Assembly (NCBI RefSeq): GCF_056746865.1
Contig: NZ_CM163382.1
Direction: 5' to 3' (one strand)
DNA length: 64,000 bases
In this document: positions 3,525-22,242 of the stretch, piece by piece
Position numbering within the stretch: position 1 is the stretch's first letter
Layout of the letters: the number at the start of each line of letters is the position of its first letter
Translations under genes and position numbers: made by a program
Notes under the pieces: model-generated
Told to the model about the DNA's origin: nothing
Database searches by the model: none
Seen by the model: the letters and a program-made list of their open reading frames with translations, nothing else

Positions 3525-4943
3525 TCAGACAACTTCCTCACCGTAACGCATAGTGCTGGTACGGTTGCGCCCATCTTTCTTCGAGCGATACAGACACGTA
3601 TCGGCTTCGACCATCAATTTATTAAAATCATCGGTCAGCGTTCGGTACGATGCGCGACCACTACCGACGCCAATACTTACCGTGAGATAAAGCGTTTTTT
3701 GTTGCCAGGTGAACGGTTGCAGTTCAACGCCTTTACGGATTTTTTCCGCCATTAGCAGACCATCGACAGGATTCACCGACGGCACTGCAACAGCAAATTC
3801 TTCGCCGCCCATGCGCGCCACCAGCCCCTTATCACCGACAATCTTCTGAATATGCCGGGCAAACACGCTTAACACTTTATCGCCACATTCATGTCCATAG
3901 TTATCGTTAATGCTTTTGAAATAGTCAATATCAAGCAGCATGACCGTCAGATGTTGTGTCTGTTTCAGCGATGGACTTTTCAGCGCCTCATAAAGACCGG
4001 ACCGTGAGTAAACCTGAGTCAGAAAATCAAAGTCGGCTCGCAGCGCAACTTGCTTCATTAGCGAATTGATCGCTGCCACGCTAAAAGAAACCATAATTGG
4101 GCATATCGCCATCGTAGCAATACCGAGACGTGCGGAGAACATTTGCGGAATGGAGAACGGCGAACCGACCGAGATATCAATCACCGAATTTGCCACCAGT
4201 ACGATTTCCACCGCACCGGTGACAAAGGTCAACAGACATGTTACCTGCGGCGTATAGCGCACGGCACACCAGATTAATGCAGGCAGCGGGAACGCCAGAC
4301 TCCCCGCTCCGCCAATGACTACCGAGGCAATAACCGACACAATAAGCGCGATAGCGGGCATCATCTGTTCTGCTTTAAAGCGCGGCAGCACTCCCGGAAT
4401 AGCCAACGTCAGCATACAAGGCACGATCAACACGCCCGTTGAGAATTGCTCACTGAACCAGTCCGCAAGCAAAGGCCAGAAATCCAGACTATCAATACTG
4501 ACCGAACCAATCGCCCCGACAATAGCGCATAATAATGCGGCAATCAGACAGTAATTAAATAGCCGTAAGGCACTTACTGGCTCATACTTATTTTTCCCCA
4601 GACGCTTATCCCGCGCGACCAGAAAGGCGACGGTAACAATAAACATCATATTGGAGAAATTGATAGCCAGTGAAACCAGCCCCCATTCGGTGGTTATGGC
4701 ATCATAAACCAGCATCGCCACATAACTGATCGCATAGTAATGCAGTCGATTAAGCCAGACATAGCGGGCAAACACCCCCGCCATTACGCCATTCAGCGGC
4801 CAGAAAAGAGAAAGTTCGTGAACCAACCGTAACTCTGCACCAATAAAATAGAACAGCGTGGTTAGCGCAAAAATAGCGATGCTATTACGTAGCAGATGAC
4901 CTTCCTGGAACAAACGGAAAGTTGAAATGGGCTGTACATGCAT
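3525..4943 (-). CDS. dgcF: membrane-anchored diguanylate cyclase
   Basis: 472-aa ORF with N-terminal hydrophobic segments and a C-terminal GGDEF domain (motif RMGGEEFAV); corresponds to yneF. Confidence 0.88.
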   Translation of the reverse strand: MHVQPISTFRLFQEGHLLRNSIAIFALTTLFYFIGAELRLVHELSLFWPLNGVMAGVFARYVWLNRLHYYAISYVAMLVYDAITTEWGLVSLAINFSNMMFIVTVAFLVARDKRLGKNKYEPVSALRLFNYCLIAALLCAIVGAIGSVSIDSLDFWPLLADWFSEQFSTGVLIVPCMLTLAIPGVLPRFKAEQMMPAIALIVSVIASVVIGGAGSLAFPLPALIWCAVRYTPQVTCLLTFVTGAVEIVLVANSVIDISVGSPFSIPQMFSARLGIATMAICPIMVSFSVAAINSLMKQVALRADFDFLTQVYSRSGLYEALKSPSLKQTQHLTVMLLDIDYFKSINDNYGHECGDKVLSVFARHIQKIVGDKGLVARMGGEEFAVAVPSVNPVDGLLMAEKIRKGVELQPFTWQQKTLYLTVSIGVGSGRASYRTLTDDFNKLMVEADTCLYRSKKDGRNRTSTMRYGEEVV

Positions 4944-5081
4944 TAATTATCTGTCCATACAATTGCGGGTGGCAATTATCTCAACGTAATAAGTAAATTC
5001 TTATAAAGGATAGCATGTTCGCTGACAGCGGCGGCAAATAAAGATATCCTGGGAATGCTATTTTATCGTTTTCCGCAATTA

Positions 5082-15764: not shown

Positions 15765-15769
15765 CTGGG
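15765..15769. repeat. IS2 target-site duplication, left copy (CTGGG)
   Basis: 5-bp direct repeat flanking the element. Confidence 0.85.
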
Positions 15770-15860
15770 TAGACTGGCCCCCTGAATCTCCAGACAACCA
15801 ATATCACTTAAATAAGTGATAGTCTTAATACTAGTTTTTAGACTAGTCATTGGAGAGCAG

Positions 15861-16226
15861 ATGATTGATGTCTTAGGACCGGAGAAACGCAGACGGCGTA
15901 CTACACAGGAAAAGATCGCTATTGTTCAGCAGAGTTTTGAACCGGGAATGACGGTCTCCCTTGTTGCCCGGCAACACGGTGTGGCAGCCAGCCAGTTATT
16001 TCTCTGGCGCAAGCAATACCAGGAGGGAAGTCTTACTGCTGTGGCCGCAGGAGAGCAGGTCGTTCCTGCCTCTGAACTTGCTGCTGCCATGAAGCAGATT
16101 AAAGAACTCCAGCGCCTGCTCGGCAAAAAAACGATGGAAAATGAACTCCTTAAAGAAGCCGTTGAATACGGGCGTGCAAAAAAGTGGATAGCGCACGCGC
16201 CCTTATTGCCCGGGGATGGGGAGTAA
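15861..16226 (+). CDS. insC: IS2 transposase OrfA (InsC)
   Basis: Translation [56 protein letters not shown]... with HTH; 121 aa from the internal ATG. Confidence 0.93.
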
Positions 16227-17089
16227 GCTTAGTCAGCCGTTGTCTCCGGGTGTCGCGTGCGCAGTTGCACGTCATTCTCAGACGAACCGATGACTGGAAA
16301 GATGGTCGCCGCAGCCGTCACTCAGATGATACGGATGTGCTTCTCCGTATACACCATGTTATCGGAGAGCTGCCCACGTATGGTTATCGTCGGGTATGGG
16401 CGCTGCTTCGCAGACAGGCCGAACTTGATGGTATGCCTGCGATCAATGCCAAACGTGTTTACCGGATCATGCGCCAGAATGCGCTGTTGCTTGAGCGAAA
16501 AACCGCTGTACCGCCATCGAAACGGGCACATACTGGCAAAGTGGCCGTGAAAGAAAGCAATCAACGATGGTGCTCTGACGGGTTCGAGTTCCGCTGTGAT
16601 AACGGAGAAAAACTGCGAGTCACGTTCGCGCTGGACTGCTGTGACCGTGAGGCACTGCACTGGGCAGTCACTACGGGCGGCTTCGACAGTGAAACAGTAC
16701 AGGACGTAATGCTGGGAGCGGTGGAACGCCGCTTCGGCAACGAGCTTCCGGCGTCTCCAGTAGAGTGGCTGACGGATAATGGTTCATGCTACCGGGCTAA
16801 TGAAACACGGCAGTTTGCCCGGATGTTGGGGCTTGAACCGAAGAACACGGCGGTGCGGAGTCCGGAGAGTAACGGCATAGCAGAGAGCTTCGTGAAAACG
16901 ATAAAGCGTGACTACATCAGTATCATGCCTAAACCAGACGGGTTAACGGCAGCAAAGAACCTTGCAGAGGCGTTCGAGCATTATAACGAATGGCATCCGC
17001 ATAGTGCACTGGGTTATCGCTCGCCACGGGAATATCTACGGCAGCGGGCCAGTAATGGGTTAAGTGATAACAGGTGTCTGGAAATATAG
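16184..17089 (+). CDS. insD: IS2 transposase OrfB (InsD), DDE catalytic domain; probably expressed as an OrfAB fusion by -1 frameshift
   Basis: 301-aa ORF in the -1 frame relative to insC, overlapping its 3' end; integrase-like core. Confidence 0.93.
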
Positions 17090-17100
17090 GGGCAAATCCA

Positions 17101-17105
17101 CTGGG
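17101..17105. repeat. IS2 target-site duplication, right copy (CTGGG)
   Basis: Identical to 15765-15769. Confidence 0.85.
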
Positions 17106-17220
17106 TAATATGAATGTTTTTATGGCCGTACTGGGAATAATTTTATTTTCTGGTTTTCTGGCCGCGTATTTCAGCCACAAATGGGATGACTAATGAACGG
17201 AGATAATCCCTCACCTAACC

Positions 17221-17259
17221 GGCCCCTTGTTACAGTTGTGTACAAGGGGCCTGATTTTT
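17221..17259 (+). terminator. intrinsic terminator of mgtS
   Basis: Perfect 10-bp stem GGCCCCTTGT / ACAAGGGGCC with an 11-nt loop, followed by TGATTTTT. Confidence 0.75.
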
Positions 17260-17267
17260 ATGACGGC

Positions 17268-17365
17268 AAAAAAAAACCGCCAGTAAACCGGCGGTGAATG
17301 CTTGCATGGATAGATTTGTGTTTTGCTTTTACGCTAACAGGCATTTTCCTGCACTGATAACGGAT
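17268..17365 (-). ncRNA. mgrR: putative PhoP-regulated sRNA MgrR (about 98 nt)
   Basis: Minus-strand hairpin CCGCCGG-UUUA-CUGGCGG followed by U9 (3' end near 17268); candidate -10 TACTGT (plus 17373-17378) puts the 5' end near 17365, giving about 98 nt; PhoP box upstream; location between mgtS and dgcZ. Boundaries are approximate. Confidence 0.5.
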
Positions 17366-17400
17366 CGTTGACACAGTAGCATCAGTTTTCTCAATGAATG

Positions 17401-17418
17401 TTAAACGGAGCTTAAACT
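17401..17418 (-). promoter_or_regulatory. PhoP box direct repeat (GTTTAA-N5-GTTTAA)
   Basis: The minus strand reads GAGTTTAAGCTCCGTTTAAC, matching the (T/G)GTTTA-N5-(T/G)GTTTA consensus; it overlaps the dgcZ stop codon and lies upstream of the putative mgrR. Confidence 0.55.
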
Positions 17419-18302
17419 CGGTTAATCACATTTTGTTCGTCAATAAACATACAGCGATTTCTTCCGGTTTGCTTACCCTCATACATTGCCCGGTCCGCTC
17501 TTCCAATGACCACATCCAGAGGTTCTTCAGGAAATGCGCGACTCACACCTGCAGTCACGGTAATGTTGATATGCCCTTCAGAATGTGTGATGGCATGGTT
17601 ATCGACTAACTGGCAAATTCTGATACCTGCACGACATGCTTCTTCATCATTAGCCGCTTTGACAATAATGATAAATTCTTCGCCACCGTAGCGATAAACC
17701 GTTTCGTAATCGCGCGTCCAACTGGCTAAGTAAGTTGCCAGGGTGCGTAATACTACATCGCCGATTAAATGCCCGTAGGTATCATTAACCAATTTAAATC
17801 GGTCAATATCCAACAACATTAAATAAAGATTCAGAGGCTCAGCGTTGCGTAACTGATGATCAAAGGATTCATCAAGAACCCGACGACCCGGCAATCCCGT
17901 CAAAACATCCATATTGCTACGGATCGTCAGCAAATAAATTTTGTAATCGGTTAATGCCGCAGTAAAAGAAAGCAACCCTTCCTGAAAGGCGTCGAAATGC
18001 GCGTCCTGCCAGTGATTTTCAACAATAGCCAACATTAATTCCCGACCACAGTTATGCATATGTTGATGGGCAGAATCCATTAGCCGAACGTAAGGTAATT
18101 CATCGTTATCGAGTGGTCCCAGATGATCAATCCACCGACCAAACTGGCACAGTCCATAAGAATGGTTATCCGTTATTTCTGGCTTACTGGCATCTCTCGC
18201 GACCACGCTGTGAAACATACTCACCAGCCACTGGTAGTGGGCATCGATAGCCTTATTGAGATTTAACAAGATGGCATCAATTTCCGTTGTCTTCTTGATC
18301 AT
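17412..18302 (-). CDS. dgcZ: zinc-sensing diguanylate cyclase DgcZ
   Basis: Start trimmed to MIKKTTEID (296 aa); C-terminal GGDEF (RYGGEEFII) and N-terminal zinc-binding-like region with His/Cys residues; corresponds to ydeH. Confidence 0.9.
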   Translation of the reverse strand: MIKKTTEIDAILLNLNKAIDAHYQWLVSMFHSVVARDASKPEITDNHSYGLCQFGRWIDHLGPLDNDELPYVRLMDSAHQHMHNCGRELMLAIVENHWQDAHFDAFQEGLLSFTAALTDYKIYLLTIRSNMDVLTGLPGRRVLDESFDHQLRNAEPLNLYLMLLDIDRFKLVNDTYGHLIGDVVLRTLATYLASWTRDYETVYRYGGEEFIIIVKAANDEEACRAGIRICQLVDNHAITHSEGHINITVTAGVSRAFPEEPLDVVIGRADRAMYEGKQTGRNRCMFIDEQNVINRV

Positions 18303-18556
18303 TGCCACTCCTTTTTCACAGTTCCTTGTGCGCGCTATTCTAACGAGAGAAAAGCAAAATTACGTCAATATTTTCATAGAAATCCGAAGTTATGAGTCAT
18401 CTCTGAGATAACATTGTGATTTGAAACAAAATCAGCAGATAAAAAAGTGTTTAATTCTGTAAATTAAGCCTGCATTATCGCAATTAAAAGGATGACAAAT
18501 AGCATAAACCAATACCCTAATGGCCCAGTAGTTCAGGCCATCAGGCTCATTTATTT

Positions 18557-18949
18557 TTATTTCTGCAAATGAGTGACCCGAACGACGGCCGGCGCGCTTT
18601 TCTTATCCAGACTGCCGCTAATGTTGATCATCTGGTCCGGCTGAACTTCTCGTCCATCAAAGACTGCCGCAGGAATAACAACATTAATTTCACCGCTCTT
18701 ATCGCGAAAAACGTAACGGTCCTCTCCTTTGTGAGAAATCAAATTACCGCGTAGTGAAACCGAAGCGCCATCATGCATGGTTTTTGCGAAATCTACGGTC
18801 ATTTTTTTTGCATCATCGGTTCCGCGATAGCCATCTTCTATTGCATGAGGCGGCGGTGGCGCTGCATCCTGTTTTAAACCGCCCTGGTCATCTGCCAACG
18901 CATAAGGCATGACAAGAAAACTTGCTAATACAATGGCCTGAAATTTCAT
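18557..18949 (-). CDS. ydeI: periplasmic OB-fold (YgiW/BOF family) stress protein
   Basis: 130-aa ORF with an N-terminal signal peptide ([19 protein letters not shown]). Confidence 0.85.
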
Positions 18950-19313
18950 ACTGACTCCTTAATTGCGTTTGGTTTGACTTATTAAGTCTGGTTGCTATTT
19001 TTATAATTGACAAATAAGAATACTGCCAATTGTTATAAGGCATTTAAAATCAGGCAACTAGCTGTCAAATATTAAGAGAATTTAACTCACTAAAGTAAGA
19101 AGAAGATTAAAGAGTCTTAAACATATTTCAGAACAATCAGATTTATAAATTTGAAAATTATTATAACGGAAGGGTATACAAAAAAAGTAATTTTGCTGGC
19201 GACTGCGAAACGGCATTCGCATTAGCGGTGAAGTTTGCCCCCACCCAGCTGCTGCAATTACTGCTCTAACCAGGCTGGCCTGGCGATATCTCCAGGCCAG
19301 CCATTGGTGGTGT

Positions 19314-21359
19314 TTATATGTTCAAGCCACGATGTTGCAGCATCGGCATAATCTGAGGTGCCTTACCGCGCCATTGTCGATACAGGCGTTCCAGATCTTC
19401 GCTGTTACCTCTGGAAAGAATCGCCTCGCGAAAACGCCGCCCATTTTCACGCGTTAATCCGCCCTGCTCAACAAACCACTGGTAACCATCATCGGCCAAC
19501 ATTTGCGTCCACAGATAAGCGTAATAACCTGCGGCATATCCGCCACCAAAAATATGGGCGAAATAACTGCTGCGATAGCGTGGCGGTATAGCGGGAAGAT
19601 CCATATTTTCTGCCACCAGCGCCCGCAATTCGAAATCATCGACATCCTGCATTGCTTCGTTTTCTTCCAGGCAATGCCAGCGCATATCGAGAAGTGCGGC
19701 GCTAAGCAGTTCGCTCATCTCATACCCTTTATTGAACAGGCTGGCATTACGCATTTTCTGTTGCAGTTCGTCAGGCATTGCTGCCCCGCTCTGATAATGC
19801 CGGGCGTAGCGAGCGAATACCTGCGGATGCGTTGCCCAGTGTTCGTTGATTTGCGACGGAAATTCGACAAAATCACGCGGCGTGTTGGTGCCGGAAAGTG
19901 TGGCATAACGCTGGCGGGCAAAGAGGCCGTGCAACGTATGACCAAATTCATGGAATAAGGTTATGACATCATCCCAGAGTAACAACGCAGGCTCACCGGC
20001 AGCGGGTTTCTGATAATTGCAGACGTTATAAATTACCGGATGCGTTTCATTAAGCGTTGATTGCTCAACAAAATTGCCCATCCATGCACCGCCGCTTTTT
20101 GAATCACGGGCGAAGAAATCACCGTAAAATAACGCCAGCCCCACGCCATTATGATCAAAAATTTCCCATACACGAACGTCAGGATGGTAGACAGGAATAT
20201 CAAAACGTTCGACAAACTTAATACCGAAGAGCTGATTCGCGGTCCAGAATACACCTTCATTCAACACCGTGTTTAATTCAAAATATGGCTTGAGCTGCGA
20301 TTCATCGAGATCGAATTTCTCACGTCTTACCTGCTCGGCATAAAATGCCCAGTCCCACGGCTGCGCGCTAAACCCGCCCTGCTGCTTATCGATAACCGCC
20401 TGTATGGAGGCTAATTCATCGCTCGCACGTTGACGCGCCGCTGGAACAATTTCCCGCATAAAGTTGAGTGCTGCTTCTGGCGTTTTTGCCATCTGATCGG
20501 CGATTTTCCATGCGGCATAATGAGGGAAACCAAGCAGTTTCGCCTGCTGCGCGCGGATCTCCACCAGACGTTGAATGATAGCGCGGGTATCATTGGCATC
20601 ATTTTTTTCCGCTCGCGTCCAGCCCGCAGTGAACAGTTTTTCACGCGTCGCGCGATCGCGCAGTTCAGCAAGCGCTGGTTGCTGGGTGGTATTCAGCAAC
20701 GGAATCAGCCATTTGTTATCCAGACCTTTCTCGCGAGCCGCCTCTGCCGCCAGCGCAATCTCTTGCTCACTCATTCCTGCCAGCTGCGCGAAATCGTTCA
20801 CAACCAGACCGCCGGATTTATTTGCTGCCAGTAACCGCTGGTTAAACTGGCTGGTCAGGGTCGCAGCTTCTGTATTCAGGACTTTTAATTTTGCTTTATC
20901 AGCTTGTGCAAGTTTGGCTCCGGCAAGGACAAAACGTTGATGAATGACCTCCACCAGGCGGATGGATTCACTATCAAGTCCCAGGGATTCACGGCGTTGC
21001 CAGACAGCATCTACCCGCGCGAATAATTCACCGTTCAGATAGATATCATTAGCCAGTTCCGCCAGTTCAGCGGAAAACTGTTCATCAAGACGCTGTAATT
21101 CATCATTAGTATGCGCCGCAGTCATCGCAAAAAAGACGCTGGTAACGCGGGTAAGTAATTCTCCGCTTTGTTCCAGTGCCAGAATAGTATTGTTGAAATC
21201 AGGTGTTTGCGGGTTAAGCGCGATGGCAGCAATTTCTGCCCGCTTTTGCTGCATTCCCTCATCGAATGCCGGGCGATAGTGATGATTGGCAATTTGATCA
21301 AAATGGGGAGCCAGATACGGCAGTGTGCTTTGCACAAGGAAAGGATTCATTGTTGTCAT
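19314..21359 (-). CDS. dcp: peptidyl-dipeptidase Dcp (M3 metallopeptidase)
   Basis: Start trimmed to MTTMNPFLVQ (681 aa); zinc motif HEFGHTLH present. Confidence 0.93.
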   Translation of the reverse strand: MTTMNPFLVQSTLPYLAPHFDQIANHHYRPAFDEGMQQKRAEIAAIALNPQTPDFNNTILALEQSGELLTRVTSVFFAMTAAHTNDELQRLDEQFSAELAELANDIYLNGELFARVDAVWQRRESLGLDSESIRLVEVIHQRFVLAGAKLAQADKAKLKVLNTEAATLTSQFNQRLLAANKSGGLVVNDFAQLAGMSEQEIALAAEAAREKGLDNKWLIPLLNTTQQPALAELRDRATREKLFTAGWTRAEKNDANDTRAIIQRLVEIRAQQAKLLGFPHYAAWKIADQMAKTPEAALNFMREIVPAARQRASDELASIQAVIDKQQGGFSAQPWDWAFYAEQVRREKFDLDESQLKPYFELNTVLNEGVFWTANQLFGIKFVERFDIPVYHPDVRVWEIFDHNGVGLALFYGDFFARDSKSGGAWMGNFVEQSTLNETHPVIYNVCNYQKPAAGEPALLLWDDVITLFHEFGHTLHGLFARQRYATLSGTNTPRDFVEFPSQINEHWATHPQVFARYARHYQSGAAMPDELQQKMRNASLFNKGYEMSELLSAALLDMRWHCLEENEAMQDVDDFELRALVAENMDLPAIPPRYRSSYFAHIFGGGYAAGYYAYLWTQMLADDGYQWFVEQGGLTRENGRRFREAILSRGNSEDLERLYRQWRGKAPQIMPMLQHRGLNI

Positions 21360-21495
21360 TTTCTTCTCCTGAACGCGAGGTGTTCCATAGCGTAGGCTTA
21401 CTGATAACGGAGTGCAATCTTGCAAACCAGTATTACCCGCTCTTAAGCATCACGTGCTATGTTATTGACACACAAAAGCGTTGAGGAACAGTGAG

Positions 21496-22242
21496 ATGAT
21501 CGTTTTAGTAACTGGAGCAACGGCAGGTTTTGGTGAATGCATTACTCGTCGTTTTATTCAACAAGGGCATAAAGTTATCGCCACTGGCCGTCGCCAGGAG
21601 CGGTTGCAGGAGTTAAAAGACGAACTGGGAGATAATCTTTATATCGCCCAACTGGACGTTCGCAACCGCGCCGCTATTGAAGAGATGCTGGCATCGCTTC
21701 CTGCCGAGTGGAGCAATATTGATATCCTGGTAAATAATGCCGGCCTGGCGTTGGGCATGGAGCCTGCGCATAAAGCCAGCGTTGAAGACTGGGAAACGAT
21801 GATTGATACCAACAATAAAGGCCTGGTATATATGACGCGCGCCGTCTTACCGGGTATGGTTGAACGTAATCATGGTCATATTATTAACATTGGCTCAACG
21901 GCAGGTAGCTGGCCGTATGCCGGTGGTAACGTTTACGGTGCGACGAAAGCGTTTGTTCGTCAGTTTAGCCTGAATCTGCGTACGGACCTGCATGGTACGG
22001 CGGTGCGCGTCACCGACATCGAACCGGGTCTGGTGGGTGGCACCGAGTTTTCCAATGTCCGCTTTAAAGGCGATGACGGTAAAGCGGAAAAAACCTATCA
22101 AAATACCGTTGCATTGACGCCAGAAGATGTCAGCGAAGCCGTCTGGTGGGTATCAACGCTGCCTGCTCACGTTAATATCAATACCCTGGAAATGATGCCG
22201 GTTACCCAAAGCTATGCCGGACTGAATGTCCACCGTCAGTAA
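21496..22242 (+). CDS. ydfG: NADP+-dependent 3-hydroxy acid dehydrogenase (SDR family)
   Basis: Start at MIVLVTGATAGFG (248 aa); Rossmann TGxxxGxG motif and YGATK active-site motif. Confidence 0.92.
   Translation: MIVLVTGATAGFGECITRRFIQQGHKVIATGRRQERLQELKDELGDNLYIAQLDVRNRAAIEEMLASLPAEWSNIDILVNNAGLALGMEPAHKASVEDWETMIDTNNKGLVYMTRAVLPGMVERNHGHIINIGSTAGSWPYAGGNVYGATKAFVRQFSLNLRTDLHGTAVRVTDIEPGLVGGTEFSNVRFKGDDGKAEKTYQNTVALTPEDVSEAVWWVSTLPAHVNINTLEMMPVTQSYAGLNVHRQ

Follow-up and report, generated by a model that had tools for sequence, protein, structure and literature searches.

The short interval between ydeI and dcp in the window, by which we mean the entire 64,000-nucleotide stretch of DNA analyzed, is almost certainly the product of a single, old, non-homologous deletion of 475 bp in ydeJ. 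The interval measures 364 bp (18950–19313), compared with 837 bp in K-12-type genomes. Along with the first 146 codons of ydeJ, the deletion took the start codon and the region for ribosome binding, and it left behind the native AT-rich region proximal to ydeI, a dead 25-codon fragment of ydeJ and a hairpin shared with dcp, with ydeI and dcp themselves untouched. Because the junction is identical wherever it is found, the allele must have arisen once, and it has been inherited by about 30% of sequenced E. coli, including D strains (ST69, with a 100% match to the window) and B2 strains. In the latter, a nested 504-bp deletion later took most of ydeI.

The deletion junction and what remains of ydeJ

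In the K-12-derived record (L001), which served as the reference for all K-12 comparisons, the gene order is dgcZ, ydeI (minus strand), ydeJ (plus strand, 519 bp, 172 codons, L001 2326–2844) and dcp (minus strand). This agrees with the preliminary description of the window, which had placed a CinA-like gene of about 172 codons between ydeI and dcp. The interval of 364 bp given there also follows from the gene coordinates. The features of the locus in the window are:

18557–18949, minus strand: ydeI, an ORF of 130 amino acids (PF04076, E = 4.9e-41), named ydeI in syntenic records
18950–19190, no strand: remaining native AT-rich ydeI–ydeJ divergent intergenic region, colinear with L001 2051–2290; its right end is the deletion junction
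19071–19190, no strand: block of high divergence, about 120 bp long with 16 differences from K-12, where the background is 1–2 per 100 bp
19190/19191, no strand: deletion junction GTAA/TTTT, placed by BLAST HSP boundaries, alignment and sequence context
19191–19269, plus strand: ydeJ 3′ remnant (pseudogene fragment), consisting of 1 nt of codon 146, then 25 codons, then TAA; without a start codon or ribosome-binding site (RBS)
19273–19302, no strand: GC-rich hairpin GGCTGGCCTGG...CCAGGCCAGCC between the convergent stop codons of ydeJ and dcp
19314–21359, minus strand: dcp, an ORF with its stop codon from 19314, encoding an intact 681-amino-acid peptidyl-dipeptidase Dcp, identified by syntenic annotation and full-length tblastn matches in outgroups

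Alignment to the K-12 locus, the check that the preliminary description had proposed, revealed one single gap of 475 bp in the window (L001 2291–2765), with colinear sequence on both sides according to both the alignment and the BLAST HSP boundaries; the K-12 spacer is not a short one. The missing segment comprises the 35 bp upstream of ydeJ and the first 440 bp of the gene. When the two endpoints were compared for direct repeats or microhomology, just one nucleotide, an A, proved to be common to them. With microhomology limited to this nucleotide, slipped-strand or repeat-mediated deletion is unsupported. No more than a single nucleotide could be assigned to either side of the junction, and this points to illegitimate recombination with 1 nt of microhomology, rather than repeat-mediated deletion, as the likely mechanism. 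A tblastn search detected no second copy of ydeJ within the window.

The preliminary description had noted a start-less open frame ending in TAA at 19267–19269 and had suggested that it might be the 3′ remnant of a deleted gene. The frame is indeed there, open back to 19111 (preceding stop at 19108–19110) and without a start codon; it reads ...NFAGDCETAFALAVKFAPTQLLQLLL up to its stop, with ...FAGDCETAFALAVKFAPTQLLQLLL as its C-terminal end. Its identity as a ydeJ remnant is supported at both the nucleotide and the protein level: 72 of the 79 nt match K-12 ydeJ, and 20 of the 25 amino acids (80%) match the C-terminus of K-12 YdeJ. Against the YdeJ equivalog NF002972, the remnant aligns to profile positions 148–172 of 175 (E = 6e-5, 22.8 bits). 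This score lies far below the curated whole-protein cut-off of NF002972 (201 bits), and the remnant gave no Pfam match at all, the cut-off for PF02464 being 23.5 bits; K-12 YdeJ scores 329 and 162 bits against the two models. Its position is orthologous to that of ydeJ, between ydeI and dcp and convergent with dcp, as judged from colinearity with K-12, O157:H7 and the outgroup. In other genomes, PGAP tags the same 81-bp fragment as 'incomplete; missing N-terminus'. Of the seven substitutions that separate the remnant from K-12, four are common to B2 strains.

Compared with K-12 ydeJ, the window lacks 85% of the gene as well as the start codon and RBS, both of which fall inside the deleted 475 bp, and for this reason no YdeJ can be made in the window strain. 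No ATG, GTG or TTG codon in the remnant frame, open from 19111, starts an ORF of at least 30 amino acids, and the remnant is not expected to be translated.

The hairpin at 19273–19302 is retained in K-12 and in every allele examined, and has thus outlived the deletion. Folded as the plus strand it has a free energy of −30.5 kcal/mol (z = −4.7), and as the minus strand one of −28.8 kcal/mol (z = −5.1), so that it has the stable GC-rich stem-loop expected of a Rho-independent terminator. The stem is followed by ATTGGTGGTGTTTA on the plus strand and by TGGTTAGAGC on the minus strand; there is no canonical U-tract 3′ of it, and a terminator scan did not pick out the hairpin on either strand. The hairpin is probably a shared 3′-end or terminator structure for ydeJ and dcp.

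The strong AT-richness of the interval, which the preliminary description had also pointed out, is borne out by a GC content of 27.0% at 18950–19190, as against 49.5% in the full window. Since the K-12 counterpart of the ydeI–ydeJ spacer is likewise low in GC (28.4%), this composition is not caused by the deletion, and the stretch is native ydeI–ydeJ intergenic DNA rather than a deletion scar. The interval at 18950–19313 contains no intact conserved ORF, as described earlier; the ORF list holds only chance frames of 38–51 amino acids (19082–19222 and 18888–19043 on the minus strand, 19235–19351 on the plus strand), one of which crosses the junction. None of these is annotated in any record compared, K-12-type records included. 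The approximately 120 bp adjoining ydeI are the best kept relative to an outgroup that is 88% identical, with 15 differences in 121 positions as opposed to 30 in 122 farther out. The ydeI promoter should sit within 18950–19190. In consensus scans of the window spacer and the K-12 spacer, neither promoter nor terminator matches rose above those in shuffled sequence, and neither the ydeI nor the ydeJ promoter was placed. The ydeI product carries a BOF/OB-fold domain (Pfam PF04076, E = 5e-41) and is predicted to be an intact, 130-amino-acid YdeI-family periplasmic OB-fold (BOF) stress-tolerance protein.

Several observations concern other parts of the window. A search with Rfam covariance models over 17000–21600 (E ≤ 1) gave no match in the spacer, its sole match being the Hfq-binding sRNA STnc560 at 17187–17400 (minus strand; full-length, 281 bits, E = 2e-65), with mgtS/mgtT on one side and the 3′ end of dgcZ on the other. 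A complete, 1,331-bp IS2 at 15770–17100 interrupts mgtS after its second codon (ATG CTG GG/IS2), flanked by the target duplication CTGGG at 15765–15769 and 17101–17105. The remainder of mgtS is thereby cut off from its promoter, RBS and start codon, and a 39-amino-acid ORF (17074–17193) runs from a GTG within the end of IS2 into the frame of MgtS. This IS2 is absent from otherwise 100% identical genomes of the ST69 type. In addition, 498 bp of the window (4511–5008) are missing from the K-12-derived record, where dgcF is annotated as a pseudogene without its N-terminus.

Distribution and ancestral state of the deletion allele

To place the window among sequenced E. coli, 18400–19500 (a 1,101-bp query) was compared by megablast with 5,426 complete genomes, 5,417 of which contain the locus. 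It occurs in three forms: a long form with annotated ydeJ (1,574 bp per 1,101-bp query), a colinear form like that in the window, in which PGAP annotates an 81-bp pseudogene, and a still shorter form, found for example in ABU 83972. Of the 5,426 genomes, 3,618 contain the interior of ydeJ, in every case with an identity to K-12 of about 98% or higher. A 70-nt junction probe (19160–19229; at least 95% identity over its full length) detected the identical junction in 1,634 of the 5,426 (30%; 1,633–1,634 full-length matches), a frequency that, like the others given here, mirrors the composition of RefSeq complete genomes and not natural populations. Only one ydeJ-positive genome matched the junction probe, and only partially, and none of the deletion-bearing genomes gave a megablast match to the ydeJ interior. 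About 165 genomes with the locus (5,417 − 3,618 − 1,634) have neither the ydeJ interior nor this junction, so other alleles exist. The comparison across E. coli that the preliminary description had called for thus uncovered a presence/absence polymorphism, and its suggestion of a strain-specific deletion is not borne out.

At least 60 complete genomes contain the 364-bp spacer with 100% identity, one of them labelled O15:H18 ST69, a sequence type that we take to be phylogroup D. In ABU 83972, the ydeJ junction is joined by a second, nested deletion of 504 bp equivalent to 18644–19147 of the window (junction between L003 positions 1744 and 1745). This deletion has 2 nt of microhomology and takes 198 bp of spacer together with 102 of the 130 codons of ydeI. 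The annotation of this strain also marks dgcZ and mgtT as frameshifted. A 50-nt probe on the second junction matched 1,037 genomes, including UTI89, ST131 and NRG 857C; together with ABU 83972 these are presumably B2 strains, phylogroups being assigned here by strain name rather than by typing. All 1,037 carry the second junction on the same first junction, and the single deletion, as in the window, is found in about 597. Of the two events, the loss of ydeJ was clearly the earlier, and that of ydeI took place afterwards on the same background.

Outside E. coli, the order dcp-ydeJ-ydeI is intact in Salmonella enterica subsp. arizonae and diarizonae, Citrobacter sedlakii and Intestinirhabdus alba. 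A contig search based on YdeI yielded 8 loci only, E. albertii, E. fergusonii and E. marmotae not being among them; a search with the YdeJ protein provided a closer outgroup, the Escherichia-like genome GCA_020783085.1, which is 88% identical to E. coli at the locus and has ydeJ intact and in place. Because the outgroups keep dcp-ydeJ-ydeI and the window retains a remnant, the presence of ydeJ is the ancestral state, and the 'different ancestral state' that the preliminary description had offered as an option can be rejected. In Escherichia sp. E1V33, ydeI adjoins dcp across a 280-bp gap with neither ydeJ nor a remnant. E1V33 and the window both lack ydeJ; the spacer sequence and the hairpin of E1V33 differ from those of the window, and since its spacer is different and remnant-free, the loss there is a separate event.

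Between K-12 and the 88%-identical outgroup, ydeJ has a dN/dS of 0.09, compared with 0.02–0.06 for the neighbouring genes, and the highest dN in the locus. These values show that ydeJ is under purifying selection where present, more weakly so than its neighbours, and on account of this selection the intact gene is best regarded as the functional state. The gene is thus functional yet comparatively dispensable, and Escherichia has lost it on more than one occasion. The YdeJ of E. fergusonii (P0034) shares 66% identity with K-12 YdeJ and is no closer to it than the Citrobacter or Salmonella proteins, which suggests very fast evolution or replacement of the gene in that species.

Divergence at the junction and alternative origins

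Over 25 kb, the window diverges from K-12 by about 2.3%, with a peak at the junction, where the seven differences in the remnant lie beside the 16 in the block at 19071–19190. The differences in the block are fixed between six deletion alleles and three ydeJ-positive alleles. When polarized with the outgroup, eight changes in the spacer block are derived on the window haplotype and seven on the K-12 haplotype. This near-even split rules out post-deletion decay or an indel-associated mutational burst as the only source of the cluster. In the remnant, five changes are derived on the window haplotype and one on that of K-12, as expected for a pseudogene. The patch sits poorly with a simple recent deletion, which does not explain it. 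It looks like the trace of an older haplotype split whose flanks may have been homogenized by recombination, and we treat it, with modest confidence, as ordinary E. coli mosaicism. Divergence from K-12 is also raised within dcp (20300–20700), where 400 bp contain 27 mismatches while nearby sequence has 1–2 per 100 bp; this second patch is probably an imported recombination tract. At the ydeI–dcp locus of MB06022 (L023, NZ_CM129892.1), an isolate from seawater in the Galapagos, ydeJ is intact and accompanied by variants otherwise seen on the deletion haplotype only: an AAG insertion and other SNPs in the spacer, and a V-to-A change in the region equivalent to the remnant (GGT to GGC ... GTA to GCA). 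This locus is an intermediate or recombinant haplotype.

The peak of divergence at the junction would be explained if the deletion haplotype had not formed in the direct ancestor of the phylogroups that carry it, but had been brought in or propagated through recombination as a short, divergent segment from a distant Escherichia lineage, or if the two haplotypes were an ancient polymorphism older than their flanks. The ratio of window-to-K-12 divergence (16 differences) to outgroup divergence (about 30) is 0.54 in 19071–19194, whereas it is 0.14–0.22 in flanking genes and spacers; the 8-to-7 distribution of derived changes shows more than mere post-deletion decay; and recombinant or intermediate haplotypes exist, in CNR85I8 as well as in ydeJ-positive MB06022. 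The patch is nevertheless small (about 120 bp) and was picked post hoc. Of all segments it also evolves fastest relative to the outgroup (24%), so that a locally high rate contributes, and similar patches, such as the one in dcp, are routine in a genome as mosaic as that of E. coli. No donor lineage came to light. We consider such an origin possible, if unlikely. A far more speculative extension holds that the deleted and intact haplotypes form an ancient Escherichia polymorphism deeper than the surrounding genome, and that loss of YdeJ, followed by that of ydeI in B2, is not neutral decay but shifts DNA-supercoiling or stress set-points, parting D/B2, which are rich in extraintestinal pathogens, from A/B1/E. 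This we regard as a long shot, and any phenotypic effect of YdeJ loss would be a presumed one.

Other origins fit the data less well still. A role for insertion sequences, through IS-adjacent deletion or recombination between IS copies, could be imagined from the AT-rich spacer, which is an IS target, from an IS1 in AF206 that lies 26 bp from the junction and from the IS2 about 2 kb away in the window. At the junction itself, however, there is no IS end, remnant or terminal repeat, native sequence being colinear with K-12 on both sides, and the IS1 and IS2 insertions each occur in one strain and are absent from genomes otherwise 100% identical to the carrier. The 5,426 genomes also offer no intermediate allele in which an IS abuts a deletion endpoint, and this route is very unlikely. 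That the deletion might be recent and strain-specific, or an assembly artefact in the window, has nothing in its favour beyond the fact that the preliminary description was made from one genome; a spacer that is perfectly conserved in 60 or more independent complete genomes, a junction shared by 1,634 and remnant substitutions that are partly common to B2, and hence indicate age, leave it with practically no credibility. The converse scenario, in which absence of ydeJ is ancestral and the gene was inserted in the K-12 (A/B1/E) lineage, draws on distribution only, about a third of E. coli and Escherichia sp. E1V33 being without ydeJ. An empty site would contain no ydeJ coding sequence, whereas the window has 79 nt of it in the right place and orientation; Salmonella, Citrobacter, Intestinirhabdus and the Escherichia-like genome all share dcp-ydeJ-ydeI; and the different, remnant-free spacer of E1V33 speaks for a separate loss. 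We judge this scenario to be as good as excluded by these observations. The single old deletion of ydeJ accordingly remains our preferred explanation.

The AF206 insertion (L004, NZ_OZ547571.1) is an IS1 with a 9-bp target duplication at the equivalent of window positions 19156–19164, to the left of the junction.

YdeJ function and relation to known alleles

YdeJ is a single-domain paralogue of CinA/PncC that is reported to have substitutions at key positions of the active site and no NMN deamidase activity (PMC3855486). The Salmonella ydeJ promoter responds to supercoiling, and deletion of the gene raises negative supercoiling, for which reason it was renamed rdsA (PMC7387798). PGAP and NF002972 call YdeJ '2-oxo-tetronate isomerase' in all RefSeq records examined, while its domain is CinA (PF02464). 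In the literature consulted, the E. coli enzyme with 2-oxo-tetronate isomerase activity is b2739/YgbM (PMC12506659), and the name given to YdeJ looks like a mislabel.

In its nature this is an ordinary gene-deletion allele that involves no new type of element or mechanism and matters little beyond bookkeeping. Its use may lie in providing a lineage marker of single origin with two steps, the ydeJ deletion and then the nested ydeI deletion in B2, which could help in typing or rooting. About a third of sequenced E. coli are without ydeJ, the Salmonella homologue of which modulates DNA supercoiling (PMC7387798). Findings made with the K-12 gene, or with reporters that use its promoter to follow supercoiling, will therefore not carry over to ST69, ST131 and clinical lineages related to them. 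Our literature search found no paper on the presence/absence polymorphism of ydeJ.

The intact counterparts of the remnant, K-12 ydeJ (b1537; PF02464, NF002972) and Salmonella rdsA, lie in this position between ydeI and dcp as well, with the same orientation. Much closer to the window are the ydeJ pseudogene fragments NL415_RS02160 of MLI121 and AC9VRX_RS14715 of AF206, whose junction, 81-bp fragment and flanks are the same as in the window; across 18400–19500, AF206 is 100% identical to it apart from the IS1. The window is thus another carrier of an already annotated allele, the remnant being recorded as a pseudogene in many RefSeq genomes. The double-deletion allele of B2 strains (ABU 83972 ECABU_RS29375/29380, UTI89, ST131 and NRG 857C) shares an identical ydeJ junction and remnant with the window but lacks most of ydeI, which in the window is intact.
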